A stretch of DNA of 4,389 nucleotides. It comes from a virus. Taxonomy: Duplodnaviria > Heunggongvirae > Uroviricota > Caudoviricetes. Every line of letters starts with the position of its first letter. Position 1 is the first letter of the stretch. A program made the position numbers and the translations under genes. Below, in pieces: positions 1 to 4,389 of this stretch. Under the pieces are notes generated by a model. It had not been told where the DNA came from, did no database searches, and saw only the letters and a list, made by a program, of their open reading frames with translations. The DNA lies in the IMG/VR virus record IMGVR_UViG_3300029468_000145; one strand, given 5' to 3'.

Positions 1-18
1 GCTGAAATTACCGCTGCT

Positions 19-352
19 ATGGAAAATAAATTGAAGATCAACATGGAACGTCAGTGGCCTGAACCAAAAGATGGTGAGCCTCGTTTGCACATTAAAGAAC
101 CCGGCAACTCTCCGGTAACTCCGGATGGTTGGGTTATAGTGCCGAAGAAACTAACCGCTGAGAACGGCGCTAAGGGTGTGCTATCCGGTGAATTTTCAGA
201 AACTACGTTTATAAGCTGCCCGGAATGCTTTGGTGATGATGATTGCGAAACTTGTGACGGCAGCGGGAGAATCGAAATCAAGGTTCCAGTCAGTTGGACA
301 ACTATCAAAACTATTTGGGCTAAAGGGTGTGAGTACTTTTCAATAGTAGCAC
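19..352 (+). CDS. Hypothetical protein with a C-x2-C-x6-C-x2-C-x-G-x-G zinc-ribbon motif (DnaJ-like CxxCxGxG signature); C-terminus lost in the N gap, N-terminus may extend upstream of the window
   Basis: Frame-1 ORF is open from base 1 (no in-frame stop in 1-18) and the ATG at 19 has no obvious Shine-Dalgarno, so the true start may be upstream. Translation contains ...ISCPECFGDDDCETCDGSGRIEIK.... Composition looks protein-like, whereas the opposite-strand ORF 51-308 is S/P/L-rich. The ORF runs into the 42-N gap at 353, so the annotated end at 429 is not trustworthy. Confidence 0.45.
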
Positions 353-394
353 NNNNNNNNNNNNNNNNNNNNNNNNNNNNNNNNNNNNNNNNNN
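353..394. other. Run of 42 N: assembly/scaffold gap or masked sequence
   Basis: Uninterrupted N characters at 353-394. True length and content unknown; reading frames cannot be carried across it. Confidence 0.95.
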
Positions 395-444
395 TTTATA
401 ACTTAAAAGCATTAAAAAACCGCTTATAGATCAAAAGAAATCTA

Positions 445-478
445 CGTCAAATATTACTATATTTCAATGTGTTATAAT
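445..478 (+). promoter_or_regulatory. Candidate sigma70 promoter with extended -10 (TGtTATAAT at 470-478) for the downstream 80-aa ORF
   Basis: Perfect TATAAT hexamer at 473-478 preceded by TG at 470-471, in a strongly AT-rich stretch (395-480). No good -35 hexamer, which extended -10 promoters can tolerate. Predicted start about 484-487, 25 nt before the ATG at 511. Confidence 0.35.
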
Positions 479-510
479 TACCCCGTACATAAAATGGGGG
501 GGGACACAAA

Positions 511-753
511 ATGTTCAAACGCTGCATCACCAAGTGTGGAAGCACACCTGACATCCAAGCTTTTATTAATGAAGATGGTAAGCTTGTTGTTGAGAGGAGT
601 GGTCCTTTTATTAGCAAACAACTTATCATTACCTCTCCAGCGGAGATGGCCGGGGAATGGATAGTTTCTGAACCAGAGGAGTTGCACATCCCGCTTCCTT
701 ATGGCCCTCAGGGACTGATTTATAACCGTTATGTTCAGAAGGAGGCGGGTTGA
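511..753 (+). CDS. Hypothetical small protein (80 aa)
   Basis: ORF with ATG at 511, preceded by a G8 tract (496-503) 7 nt upstream that can pair with the anti-SD. The candidate extended -10 promoter lies just upstream. An in-frame stop at 490-492 fixes the start. Balanced amino-acid composition. The competing antisense ORFs (478-924, 447-689) are low-complexity and run through the promoter. No family recognised. Confidence 0.45.
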   Translation: MFKRCITKCGSTPDIQAFINEDGKLVVERSGPFISKQLIITSPAEMAGEWIVSEPEELHIPLPYGPQGLIYNRYVQKEAG

Positions 754-1032
754 CAATGTCAGGCATAACATCGCCGAGAAATCGAAAGAAAAACAGAACA
801 AGGTAAACGTTGACCTTGCAGCATCAGGCATGGAGTACAGAGAGCGCCTTAACATGCCTGTTATCACTGAGCAGGTATCATGAGAGCAACCTGAGCACTC
901 ACGCGAGTATTTCATGGAGCGCATCAGATACTATCGCGAGCAGTCGTTAAACATGCCCAAGGGAAGCAACCCATGGTATATCGATATGGATGAACAGAAC
1001 GCCAAGAAGTAAACGCAATTTGAACGAATGCG

Positions 1033-1058
1033 AACCCGCCGAGTGCGGGTTTTCTTTT
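1033..1058 (+). terminator. Intrinsic (rho-independent) terminator T1
   Basis: Stem ACCCGC (1034-1039) pairs with GCGGGT (1045-1050) around a 5-nt loop CGAGT, followed by T-run TTTTCTTTT (1050-1058). Lies 21 nt after the TAA at 1010-1012 that closes the frame-2 reading frame. Confidence 0.6.
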
Positions 1059-1063
1059 ATCTG

Positions 1064-1088
1064 AACTCGCTACGGCGAGTTTTGTTTT
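1064..1088 (+). terminator. Intrinsic terminator T2, tandem to T1
   Basis: Stem AACTCGC (1064-1070) pairs with GCGAGTT (1075-1081) around tetraloop TACG, followed by TTTGTTTT (1081-1088). Ends 3 nt before the GGAGA Shine-Dalgarno of the 1102 ORF. Confidence 0.55.
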
Positions 1089-1101
1089 ATGGAGACAAGA
1101 A

Positions 1102-1446
1102 ATGTCAGATTTGGCTATGAAAGTTTTGAAATGGCAATCGACTGGCGATGTTGGCATCAGTAGCGCAACTCTTGCCTCAATCGCATGTGGACTGAAAAAG
1201 AATATCTATGATCATGGCTTCGGTGCTCCACATGACGCAGCCGATTTCAGACGATGCGTTGCACTTGTTGAGCAGATTCCAGAAATCAGAGATTCATTCG
1301 ACAAGGTTGCAAAGCGCGTTCCGGCATTCAAAGGCATCCTCAACGAATGGGATTCTCTCGTTGCTCTGTTGAAGTCTGAAATGAAGATACACGGAAACAA
1401 AGCACCAGAGACTTACAGAAGAATCAGCGAGCTACGCAAGGACTAA
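1102..1446 (+). CDS. Hypothetical protein (114 aa), function unknown
   Basis: ATG at 1102 with GGAGA (1091-1095) 6 nt upstream; TAA stop at 1444-1446. Clean ORF with ordinary composition and no overlapping plausible alternative. I do not recognise a family from the sequence (MSDLAMKVLKWQSTGDVGISSATLASIACGLKK...). Confidence 0.65.
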   Translation: MSDLAMKVLKWQSTGDVGISSATLASIACGLKKNIYDHGFGAPHDAADFRRCVALVEQIPEIRDSFDKVAKRVPAFKGILNEWDSLVALLKSEMKIHGNKAPETYRRISELRKD

Positions 1447-1483
1447 CGCCTCACACTCGATGAGGCCTGTACATATCTGATAG

Positions 1484-1508
1484 AGCCGCTATATGGCGGT
1501 TTCTTTTT
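1484..1508 (+). terminator. Intrinsic terminator-like hairpin T3 directly upstream of the alpA-like gene
   Basis: Stem CCGC (1486-1489) pairs with GCGG (1496-1499), extendable by G-U/A-U pairs, loop ATAT(G), followed by TTTCTTTTT (1500-1508). A second hairpin without a T-run sits at 1448-1466 (GCCTCA/TGAGGC) right after the 1102-1446 stop. Confidence 0.5.
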
Positions 1509-1523
1509 GCCTGGAGAATTAAG

Positions 1524-1715
1524 ATGACCGATACCAGCCTGATTCCTGAGAAAGAAGTGATGAACAAGCTCGGTGTTTCATCACGTCAGACAATCTGGAA
1601 CTATACCAAACGGCACGGATTTCCGAAGCCAGTCAGAACCCACCCCAAATCATACCTTCGTGAAGCTGTTGAAGGGTGGATTCTTAACGGTGGCGTTAAT
1701 CAGAAATGCTCCTGA
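1524..1715 (+). CDS. alpA: AlpA/Vis-family small helix-turn-helix protein (prophage transcriptional regulator / excisionase-like), 63 aa
   Basis: ATG at 1524 with GGAGA (1513-1517) 6 nt upstream; TGA at 1713-1715. Translation has the characteristic AlpA/Xis-type HTH (...EVMNKLGVSSRQTIWNYTKRHGFPKPVR...YLREAVEGWI). Size and position next to a P4-type integrase fit this family. Confidence 0.75.
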   Translation: MTDTSLIPEKEVMNKLGVSSRQTIWNYTKRHGFPKPVRTHPKSYLREAVEGWILNGGVNQKCS

Positions 1716-2874
1716 TGTGCCAGAACAATTTATCAGCGTGAAGCTCATACGCTTTGCGCTGAGCCTCTATCCAGTCGTGTTTATTGTACACGGACATTAT
1801 CCCGCCAAGTTCATGACCGAGCATTCGCTCAGTAACATGAGGCTCGACATTCATCTCGGACAGACGTGTAACAAGCGTTCTTCTGAAATCGTGTGTTCGC
1901 CAGTAACCTAGATCCATCCCTCCCCTTATTCTATTTACGAATCGGTTGGCTGCAGCGATGCTGATCGGTTTGTTTATGTCTTCTCCAGGGAAAAGAACAT
2001 CATTGTACGTTGTCATGGCCTTTTCGAGAAAAGGCTTAATTTGTTCGAAGATTGGACGGCGGATAACATTACCCATCTTGCTATGCTCTTTCGGTACGGT
2101 CCATACGTTGTCCAGCAGGTCAAATTCTGTCTTTGTTGCCAGCCTAAGCTCTGAGAGCCTCGCCCCCCACAGCATAAGCATCTGATGAAGGAGCTTATTT
2201 GACGTAGACGCACGGCTTCTTTCAATAGCAAGCCAAATCTTAGCCAGTTCGTGATACGACAGTACCCGATCCCCTACCTCAGCGCGGGAGCCGAAGTCCC
2301 TTGGTTGGATGCTCATAATTGCGCAACTATCTATCAACTGACGTCGCATGCACCAACTTATTGCTGATCTTAGTTGACTTAGCACTTGCCTTGCTCGGCG
2401 TGGATTATCTCTTTCTTCTTCGGTAAGCAGGTCAACCCATTGCTTAACCGTGATAGAAGATGCCGGACGATTAGGAAAGGCGTCATGCATGCGCTTCATA
2501 ACCGTTGATCGGTAAAGTGCCTGGGTCTTTTCTCTGAGAGTTGTAGAGACGTAGTTGTCGAACCAGTAGTCGAGACACTGGGCGACCGTCATGGAGTTCT
2601 CCACCTTCTCTTCAAAATAAGTGCGTGGATCCGTTCCTGAGAAATAGAGCTTTCGCAAGTCAGCAGTGATCTGTCTGGCATCCTTCAAAGACAGGGATGG
2701 GTATCGACCAAGCCCAAGTCGATTAGGCTTGCCATGCCAGCGATAGCGGTACTGGAACTGGATGACCCCCTTCGGTGAAATTCGTACGCTGAGGCCATCG
2801 GCATCAGCCACTTCTTGTGGGCCCGAATATGGTTTACCATAAATAGTACGCAGTTTTGTGTCGCTTATAGCCAT
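1696..2874 (-). CDS. int: Site-specific tyrosine recombinase, P4-type phage integrase (392 aa)
   Basis: Full-length ORF on the minus strand. N-terminus MAISDTKLRTIYGKP... resembles the P4-integrase arm-binding domain. The C-terminal catalytic region has the recombinase signature: R in ...GARLSEL..., H-x-x-R in ...THDFRRT..., and the H/Y pair in ...LGHELGGIMSVYNKHD.... Stop is TAA (reverse complement of 1696-1698). Confidence 0.95.
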   Translation of the reverse strand: MAISDTKLRTIYGKPYSGPQEVADADGLSVRISPKGVIQFQYRYRWHGKPNRLGLGRYPSLSLKDARQITADLRKLYFSGTDPRTYFEEKVENSMTVAQCLDYWFDNYVSTTLREKTQALYRSTVMKRMHDAFPNRPASSITVKQWVDLLTEEERDNPRRARQVLSQLRSAISWCMRRQLIDSCAIMSIQPRDFGSRAEVGDRVLSYHELAKIWLAIERSRASTSNKLLHQMLMLWGARLSELRLATKTEFDLLDNVWTVPKEHSKMGNVIRRPIFEQIKPFLEKAMTTYNDVLFPGEDINKPISIAAANRFVNRIRGGMDLGYWRTHDFRRTLVTRLSEMNVEPHVTERMLGHELGGIMSVYNKHDWIEAQRKAYELHADKLFWHIRSISD

Positions 2875-3055
2875 AAATAATATTTGGTACGCTCAGAAAT
2901 AATGGTTTGGTACACATCTGGTACACAATATCACATGGACAACAGCGCACAGTAAACAACTATATTTGACGTTCGTAGACATACTCAGGTGAAAAAATGG
3001 TTGTTTTTCGAGTTATAACAGACAGTTAATTAACTACAGTGGACAATGCTAGACA
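2875..3055. promoter_or_regulatory. int-sbcB spacer: expected to hold the int promoter, the sbcB promoter and the element/chromosome junction (att)
   Basis: 181 bp between the divergent starts of int (2874, -) and sbcB (3056, +). Contains the repeat cluster above, a 12-bp perfect palindrome AGTTAATTAACT (3024-3035) and a tandem GACAATG (3042-3048, 3052-3058), the second including the sbcB ATG. No tRNA-like sequence. Individual promoter hexamers could not be assigned confidently. Confidence 0.4.
2883..2927. repeat. Cluster of direct repeats (TTTGGTAC x2; TGGTACACA x2) in the integrase 5' leader/promoter region; candidate Int arm-type or operator sites
   Basis: TTTGGTAC at 2883-2890 and 2906-2913; TGGTACACA at 2908-2916 and 2919-2927, 11 bp apart (one helical turn). 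All lie within 55 bp upstream of the int start codon. Confidence 0.45.
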
Positions 3056-4389
3056 ATGACAGACGCAGATAAACAACCTACCTTCCTCTTTCACGATTAC
3101 GAAACCTTTGGAACGCACCCCGCGTTAGATCGCCCTGCACAGTTCGCAGCCATTCGCACTGATAACGAATTCAATGTCATCGGCGAACCCGAAGTCTTTT
3201 ACTGCAAGCCCGCGGATGACTATTTACCCCAGCCTGGAGCAGTATTAATTACCGGTATTACCCCGCAGGAAGCACGGGCGAAAGGAGAAAACGAAGCCAC
3301 GTTTGCCGCCCGTATTCACTCGCTTTTTACCGTACCGAAGACCTGTATTCTGGGCTACAACAATGTGCGTTTCGACGACGAAGTCACACGCAACGTTTTT
3401 TATCGTAATTTCTACGATCCTTACGCCTGGAGCTGGCAGCATGATAACTCGCGCTGGGATTTACTGGATGTTATGCGTGCCTGTTATGCCCTACGCCCGG
3501 AAGGAATAAACTGGCCTGAAAATGATGACGGTCTACCGAGCTTTCGCCTTGAGCATTTAACCAAAGCGAATGGTATTGAACATAGCAACGCCCACGATGC
3601 GATGGCTGATGTGTACGCCACTATTGCGATGGCGAAACTGGTAAAAACGCGTCAGCCACGCCTGTTTGATTATCTCTTTACCCATCGTAATAAACACAAA
3701 CTGATGGCGTTGATTGATGTTCCGCAGATGAAACCCCTGGTTCACGTTTCCGGAATGTTTGGGGCATGGCGCGGCAATACCAGCTGGGTGGCACCGCTGG
3801 CGTGGCATCCTGAAAATCGCAATGCCGTAATTATGGTGGATTTGGCAGGAGACATTTCGCCATTACTGGAGCTGGATAGCGACACATTGCGCGAGCGTTT
3901 ATATACCGCAAAAGCCGATCTTGGCGATAACGCCGCCGTTCCGGTTAAGCTGGTGCATATCAATAAATGTCCGGTACTGGCCCAGGCGAATACGCTACGC
4001 CCGGAAGATGCCGACCGACTGGGAATTAATCGTCAGCATTGCCTCGATAACCTAAAAATTCTGCGTGAAAATCCGCAAGTGCGTGAAAAAGTGGTGGCGA
4101 TATTCGCGGAAGCCGAACCGTTTACGCCTTCAGAGAACGTGGATGCACAGCTTTATAATGGCTTTTTCAGTGACGCCGATCGTGCAGCAATGAAAATTGT
4201 GCTGGAAACCGAGCCGCGTAATTTACCGGCACTGGATATCACTTTTGTTGATAAACGAATTGAAAAACTGTTGTTCAATTATCGAGCACGCAACTTCCCG
4301 GGGACGCTGGATTATGCCGAGCAGCAACGCTGGCTGGAGCACCGCCGCCAGGTCTTCACGCCAGAGTTTTTGCAGGGCTACGCTGATGA
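3056..4389 (+). CDS. sbcB: Exodeoxyribonuclease I (exonuclease I), 3'-partial: the ORF runs off the end of the window
   Basis: ATG at 3056 with an in-frame TAG immediately upstream (3050-3052). Translation MTDADKQPTFLFHDYETFGTHPALDRPAQFAAIRTDNEFNVIGEP...NVRFDDEVTRN...HDAMADVYATIAMAKLVK... matches enterobacterial SbcB as I recall it, including the DEDDh exonuclease motifs. Frame is open for 444 codons to base 4389. The ORF track omits it only because it has no stop in the window. Confidence 0.95.
   Translation, partial: MTDADKQPTFLFHDYETFGTHPALDRPAQFAAIRTDNEFNVIGEPEVFYCKPADDYLPQPGAVLITGITPQEARAKGENEATFAARIHSLFTVPKTCILGYNNVRFDDEVTRNVFYRNFYDPYAWSWQHDNSRWDLLDVMRACYALRPEGINWPENDDGLPSFRLEHLTKANGIEHSNAHDAMADVYATIAMAKLVKTRQPRLFDYLFTHRNKHKLMALIDVPQMKPLVHVSGMFGAWRGNTSWVAPLAWHPENRNAVIMVDLAGDISPLLELDSDTLRERLYTAKADLGDNAAVPVKLVHINKCPVLAQANTLRPEDADRLGINRQHCLDNLKILRENPQVREKVVAIFAEAEPFTPSENVDAQLYNGFFSDADRAAMKIVLETEPRNLPALDITFVDKRIEKLLFNYRARNFPGTLDYAEQQRWLEHRRQVFTPEFLQGYAD

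Follow-up and report, generated by a model that had tools for sequence, protein, structure and literature searches.

What kind of mobile element ends at the start of sbcB, exactly where does it end, and what becomes of the host gene? These questions are raised by a 4,389-nucleotide stretch of DNA from the IMG/VR virus record IMGVR_UViG_3300029468_000145 (hereafter the window), in which a tyrosine integrase gene (int) lies beside sbcB, the gene for exodeoxyribonuclease I (ExoI). The original prediction, made from the window alone, had proposed that an int-alpA element with a P4-type integrase is integrated at the 5′ end of sbcB, an unusual target in not being a tRNA gene. The distance it gave from the start of int to the sbcB ATG is exactly right (181 bp, 2875-3055). 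The window matches the chromosome of Escherichia coli EH01-18-04-A (NZ_CP063515.1) at 100% identity; below, L001 denotes the 49.9-kb locus of this chromosome, L002 the K-12 locus, which has the empty site, and L006 the record NZ_CP063485.1. Comparison of these loci indicates that the window almost certainly holds the right junction (attR) of a 42.4-kb lambdoid prophage, integrated by integrase-mediated, site-specific recombination between the phage attachment site (attP) and a core sequence in sbcB.

The two ends of the element carry the main evidence. BLAST comparison of the dacD-proximal with the sbcB-proximal end returned a 30-bp imperfect match whose terminal 13 nt are exact, and a three-way alignment of the left junction (attL), attR and the empty K-12 site (attB) defined a shared 13-bp core, TTTCACGATTACG. 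The attL junction follows K-12 through ...ATGATGAATGACGGTAAGCAACAATCTACCTTTTTG TTTCACGATTACG and is phage DNA afterwards; attR is phage DNA through ...ATGACAGACGCAGATAAACAACCTACCTTCCTC TTTCACGATTACG and K-12 sbcB afterwards; and the empty site of K-12 joins both outer flanks precisely at the core. Two of the checks suggested by the original prediction, alignment of the junction to an element-free site and a search for the matching direct repeat at the far end, thereby gave positive answers, the second copy of the core lying 42,383 bp to the left of the first. The attP of free phages (mEp234, Sf101) is collinear with the left side of attR, the core and the right side of attL, with no rearrangement. 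Moreover, TTTCACGATTACG, once reverse-complemented, reads exactly as the attP 5′-CGTAATCGTGAAA-3′ published for phages 2851 and Sf101 (PMC4159516), and the GenBank record of mEp234 carries a 13-bp misc_feature, 'prophage attachment site (type 2851)', at the matching position. The core occupies codons 12-16 of sbcB in the lysogen and codons 13-17 of native sbcB. A junction near the start of sbcB had been correctly foreseen, but not the extent of 1696-3080, since the boundary is at 3089-3101, 33 nt into the sbcB frame.

Between dacD and sbcB, EH01-18-04-A carries a complete annotated lambdoid prophage, which runs about 39 kb past the left edge of the window. Its genes are known here by their annotated names, taken from the RefSeq annotation (NZ_CP063515.1, 958-1000 kb). 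From the dacD side, an acyltransferase gene is followed by tail-fibre, baseplate, sheath/tube, head, portal and terminase genes; then come Rha, the lysis cassette, Q, the nin region, a replication protein and a DnaB-like helicase, followed by cII, cro, a LexA-family (cI-like) repressor, N, Ral, RecT and ead/Ea22-like genes, and finally the small open reading frames of the window, a 63-aa helix-turn-helix protein and the integrase. By name, the N and Q antiterminators, the cI/cro/cII immunity genes, the nin region and the lysis cassette stand in lambda order; the lysis genes include holin and lysozyme, the replication genes are of the O/P type, and the tail is contractile. The virion half shows 96% identity to the Escherichia myophage vB_EcoM-611R5 and its relatives and 82% to Salmonella phage SEN34. 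The RefSeq annotation of the prophage contains no stx gene.

Seen in isolation, the window would also suit a small int-alpA genomic island, a P4-like satellite or phage-inducible chromosomal island with no phage attached: it shows only int, an AlpA-like open reading frame and small hypothetical open reading frames, and Int and Xis are distant relatives of P4 Int and Vis. However, the 42,383 bp between the cores hold replication, lysis, terminase, portal, capsid, sheath/tube and baseplate genes, the structural half shares 96% identity with that of sequenced myophages, and an int module of identical type is present in the isolated virions mEp234, HK544, Sf101 and 2851, leaving the island explanation with practically no chance of being correct. 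Assignment to the phage-inducible chromosomal islands or P4 satellites, which measure about 10-15 kb and are without virion and lysis genes of their own, was rejected on the length and full modules of the element. Annotation of the whole region shows the boundaries of the int-alpA element originally envisaged to be wrong in kind: they enclose part of one end of a full lambdoid prophage.

The integrase that would have mediated the integration of this prophage combines an N-terminal Arm-DNA-bind_3 domain (DUF4102; PF13356, 64.8 bits, cut-off 27) with a C-terminal catalytic Phage_integrase domain (PF00589, 61.5 bits, cut-off 27.1), and falls in PHROG 1 (integrase; E=3e-74). Its N-terminus matches the CP4-like integrase arm-domain structures 3jtz (E=1.7e-11) and 3ju0, and its full length matches the lambda Int structures 1z1b and 5j0n. 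The resemblance to P4 Int is distant (25% identity over 330 aa, E=5e-13), and the score against NCBIfam PRK09692 is 51 bits, the cut-off being 434 bits. Nevertheless, the integrase is P4-type in a broad sense, given its Arm-DNA-bind_3 domain, its 25% identity to P4 Int and the P4-like layout of its arm sites. Five copies of the arm-type decamer TYTGGTACRC are present in the 49.9-kb locus (0.25 expected; five reached in none of 100 shuffles), all of them in the vicinity of the two cores. Three sit 9-53 bp from the start of int and two, in tandem, 55-77 bp past the attL core; the other core lies 214 bp upstream of int. The annotated attP of P4 shares this plan: in both, arm repeats adjoin the start of int, the core is placed 115-215 bp upstream, and a tandem pair of repeats with 12-bp spacing lies 54-77 bp past the core.

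The 63-aa protein had been labelled alpA, for which phage excisionase is a better name. It matches PHROG 66 ('excisionase and transcriptional regulator', E=1.9e-8) and resembles P4 ORF88/Vis (33% identity over 45 aa, E=2e-4), whereas its match to Pfam AlpA (PF05930) scores 17.8 bits, under the 21-bit cut-off; in the mEp234 record, xis is annotated as similar to the excisionase of phage 24B. From these similarities, the protein is probably a phage excisionase (Xis). Its gene is the last of the plus-strand early-left operon and converges on int with a 3′ overlap of 20 bp (window 1696-1715), so that early-left transcripts through xis would be antisense to int. By lambda-type logic, int would be transcribed on the minus strand from a promoter of its own in the P arm or spacer, and Xis would be made only on induction, when N-antiterminated pL transcripts pass three terminators.

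The module comprising int, xis and attP (window 1400-3060) shares 98.7-99.2% nucleotide identity with phages 2851 (Stx2c) and 1717 (Stx2), mEp234, HK544, HK140, Sf101 and several Stx1a/2a/2c phages. It has features of the phage 2851-type sbcB integration module, namely near-identical int and xis, the 13-bp core and insertion within the 5′ end of sbcB, the site being empty in non-lysogens. Compared with Stx2c phage 2851, the int, xis and attP region is 99.0% identical over 1,661 bp and the core and sbcB target are identical, whereas cargo and morphogenesis differ, the present prophage having no annotated stx and a contractile tail as in vB_EcoM-611R5 and SEN34. With the Shigella flexneri serotype-converting phage Sf101 it shares an O-antigen-type acyltransferase gene past the P′ arm in the same orientation (the position of oacB in Sf101); they part in virion type, Sf101 being a podovirus akin to P22 (Lederbergvirus) and the present prophage having a myovirus-like virion module, and the phage-borne N-terminus of ExoI differs between the two at two residues. 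The lambdoid phages mEp234, HK544 and HK140 carry int, xis and attP at about 99% identity, but their virion modules are HK97-like and siphoviral. Satellite P4 has the same Int architecture, with an arm-binding DUF4102-type domain and a catalytic domain, and a Vis protein to which Xis is related. It differs in that Int identity is only 25%, the carrier here is a full phage and not a satellite, and the target is the 5′ coding end of a protein gene, sbcB, not the 3′ end of a tRNA gene (tRNA-Leu in P4), no tRNA or tmRNA gene being involved.

The site itself is not the unusual one that the original prediction implied. The 13-bp core was published for phage 2851 in 2008 (Strauch et al., Infect Immun 76:5466), as relayed by PMC4159516, and the core and sbcB site of Sf101 were described by Jakhetia et al. 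in 2014 (PMC4159516). In E. coli O157, sbcB is one of four insertion loci routinely typed by junction PCR and is mostly occupied by Stx2c phages (PMC8309913; PMC3519850), making it a standard locus for typing Stx prophages. The attachment site and integration module are therefore already known, and are carried here by a different mosaic phage.

We then consider what integration does to sbcB. The frame opening at ATG 3056 runs without a stop for 444 aa to the end of the window, contains the Pfam domains RNase_T and Exonuc_X-T_C, and matches E. coli ExoI structures in the PDB at E=0. Everything to the left of 3089 in the lysogen is phage-supplied, including the sbcB start codon, the first 11 codons and all upstream DNA. 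The chimeric N-terminus MTDADKQPTFL-FHDY replaces the native MMNDGKQQSTFL-FHDY, and equivalents stand in the attP of the free phages mEp234 (MTDTDKQPTFL) and Sf101 (MTGTDKQPTFL). The original expectation that the element reconstitutes the first sbcB codons is thus borne out by both the three-way alignment and the free phages. The sbcB gene measures 1425 nt in the lysogen and 1428 nt in K-12, and ExoI 474 and 475 aa, respectively. Past the junction (F10/F11 onward), 459 of 465 residues are those of K-12, with the substitutions evenly spread. The native promoter and first 12 codons are stranded at attL, where they encode only a 20-aa peptide, MMNDGKQQSTFLFHDYAQHP, followed by a stop. The body of sbcB is fused in frame to the phage-borne start, preserving full-length ExoI. 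Since all upstream DNA is phage-derived, any sbcB promoter in the lysogen is necessarily phage-supplied, and we infer that the spacer provides a working promoter and ribosome-binding site.

Alternatively, integration could inactivate or silence sbcB, in which case the in-frame start would be fortuitous and lysogens would be ExoI-deficient or strongly altered in their ExoI level. The region upstream of the surrogate ATG shows no convincing promoter or strong Shine-Dalgarno sequence, and some papers do call the sbcB site 'disrupted'. However, the native upstream region, between dacD and sbcB, is likewise without a strong consensus promoter; independent free phages share the surrogate 5′ end, which varies only conservatively and keeps the frame and QxTFLFHDY; and the downstream frame is intact, its 459/465 agreement with K-12 leaving no excess of substitutions. 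We therefore regard silencing as improbable and favour the preservation of sbcB through the phage-borne start. A bioRxiv paper on retron-dependent sbcB essentiality, a subject unrelated to integration, indicates that some strains can incur a cost when sbcB is lost.

A further idea is a reciprocal promoter swap with physiological consequences, in which phage DNA bearing the Int arm sites drives sbcB and couples the ExoI level to the state of the phage, and the orphaned native promoter may help to express the acyltransferase; we consider this unlikely. The acyltransferase-family gene (L001 5173-6360) begins 322 bp inside attL, is co-oriented with the orphaned promoter and probably encodes an O-antigen acetyltransferase. 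No terminator was predicted between the orphaned sbcB promoter and this gene, whose start has two or three weak promoter-like sites nearby.

The original prediction had also reported no tRNA-like sequence in the spacer and had named an RNA gene at 2875-3055 as a finding that would undo it. ARAGORN detected no tRNA or tmRNA in the whole window, and Rfam covariance models (cmscan, E<=10) matched nothing in the spacer; the two matches elsewhere in the window (950-1085 and 591-639) are sub-threshold. The first of these, rsmX, was rejected at 24 bits against a gathering score of 56, and corresponds to tandem terminator hairpins (1032-1082). A small RNA gene overlooked in the spacer might in principle be what the integrase targets, which would accord with the general habit of P4-type integrases and nothing more; against these negative searches, and with a spacer that is phage DNA present in free attP and a breakpoint within sbcB coding sequence, this explanation is hardly credible, and the target is sbcB itself. 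As to promoters, a strict sigma-70 consensus scan of window 1400-3200 yielded none, and a lenient scan of the spacer gave TGGACA-19-TATATT at 2936-2966 as its sole candidate.

Why a protein-coding sequence should serve as target may be explained by the residues that it encodes. The core covers the FHDYE motif of ExoI, which we take to contain the catalytic Asp15 and Glu17 (PDB 1FXX). Such coverage would make the core an unusually invariant target, a protein-coding analogue of a tRNA gene, and the invariance of these codons would explain the choice of a protein-coding site. In attB, the core lies inside a perfect 5-bp inverted repeat, GTTTC-ACGATTAC-GAAAC (K-12, L002 3793-3810), of which attR retains 4/5 positions and attP no longer has the right arm. 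This repeat, itself too short to be set apart from chance, suggests core-type Int sites around an 8-bp overlap.

How widely the site is occupied was assessed in 5,426 complete E. coli genomes with a 211-bp attR query, the core at its centre, and an equivalent empty-site query taken from K-12, a genome being counted when at least 80% of the query was covered. The attR junction is present in 582 genomes and the empty attB in 4,841 (89%), which together make 5,423, every genome with any match; the attL junction is present in 572. Occupancy of the sbcB site is therefore polymorphic, usually with an intact junction on either side, and int-alpA is not the fixed ancestral feature, lacking any empty site, that the original prediction had raised against itself. 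Among GTDB species representatives, an exact-match scan for the attR junction gave one hit, an E. coli contig, and no sign of use beyond E. coli/Shigella. In addition, NZ_CP063485.1, a 39-kb circular 'plasmid' record, is a P22-like phage with a matching int, xis and attP module, and the origin of the record falls at the 13-bp core (L006 1-100, 38860-39096). It probably represents a phage circle, excised or replicating, that entered the assembly.

Three observations weigh against a functional prophage with a reconstituted sbcB: (i) no strong sigma-70 consensus was found on either strand of the 181-bp spacer; (ii) the core at the origin of NZ_CP063485.1 lacks one G, so that this junction is possibly a product of assembly; and (iii) the prophage carries at least one pseudogene, a gene resembling that for DNA polymerase III theta. 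The last of these would also be expected if int, xis and attR were a fixed or decayed, immobile remnant at a domesticated locus, as would the IS-disrupted remnants seen upstream of sbcB in Shigella (PMC4159516). Yet the two cores and the five arm repeats are undamaged, int and xis retain their full length, at about 99% identity to their counterparts in phages recovered as infectious particles, and the census shows 89% of complete genomes empty and nearly equal numbers of attL (572) and attR (582) junctions. An immobile remnant is thus very unlikely, and integration of a lambdoid prophage by site-specific recombination at the sbcB core is the explanation we retain. The coordinates of the features are given in Table 1.

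Table 1 Features at the prophage-sbcB junction. Positions are those of the window unless L001 is given.
Feature	Position	Strand	Basis
Prophage right end: distal early-left operon genes, xis, int and P arm of the attachment site	1..3088		
Terminator-like hairpins, tandem, after the theta-like gene	1032-1052 and 1063-1082		pattern scans
Terminator-like hairpin, just upstream of xis	1483..1502	+	pattern scan
Helix-turn-helix protein resembling the AlpA/Vis/Xis family, probable excisionase, 63 aa	1524..1715	+	PHROG 66, P4 Vis similarity
Tyrosine integrase, phage 2851 type, 392 aa	1696-2874	-	open reading frame, Pfam, PHROG
Spacer, P arm of attP, phage-derived, 181 bp	2875..3055		near-identical to and collinear with free-phage attP
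Arm-type repeat TTTGGTACGC, P arm site 1	2883..2892	+	TYTGGTACRC scan
Arm-type repeats TTTGGTACAC and TCTGGTACAC, P arm sites 2 and 3	2906-2915, 2917-2926	+	scan; also in mEp234 and Sf101 attP
sbcB, exodeoxyribonuclease I, intact chimeric frame	3056..4389 (runs off the window end)	+	Pfam, PDB
Surrogate sbcB start, phage-borne, ATG + 10 codons, MTDADKQPTFL	3056..3088	+	attB/attL/attR alignment; free-phage attP
Core, attR copy, TTTCACGATTACG	3089-3101		three-way alignment, free-phage attP
Core, attL copy, TTTCACGATTACG	L001 4838-4850		42,383 bp left of the attR copy

Several further observations concern the prophage and its surroundings. The theta-like gene is a phage-borne HolE/Hot-like homologue at window 731-1012, annotated as a pseudogene with an internal stop; its translation stops after 50 codons and then resumes in frame. 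A membrane-puncturing spike protein is annotated at L001 9757-10512, its family name being masked as 'xxxxx' in the annotation table. On the far side of the junction, plaP directly follows sbcB in EH01-18-04-A (L001 48611-48683), and the roughly 1.5 kb of K-12 with tsuB and tsuA (yeeD/yeeE; L002 5183-6702) is missing. The window itself contains a run of 42 N at 353-394, within a DUF550 or dATP-dGTP pyrophosphohydrolase-like phage gene, where NZ_CP063515.1 has ordinary letters; the stretch corresponding to the window measures 4,376 nt in that record, 13 nt less than the 4,389 nt here. The run looks like masking in the dataset and not biology.

The discovery value of this locus is small, its attachment site and module having been described before; it is a clean textbook illustration of three points. 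First, integrases of P4-like architecture can target protein-coding genes. Second, phages that target protein genes carry a surrogate gene end, by which the host gene is kept intact. Third, a single cassette of int and attP has been shuffled among virion types, from P22-like and HK97-like phages and Stx phages to the myovirus-like phage described here.

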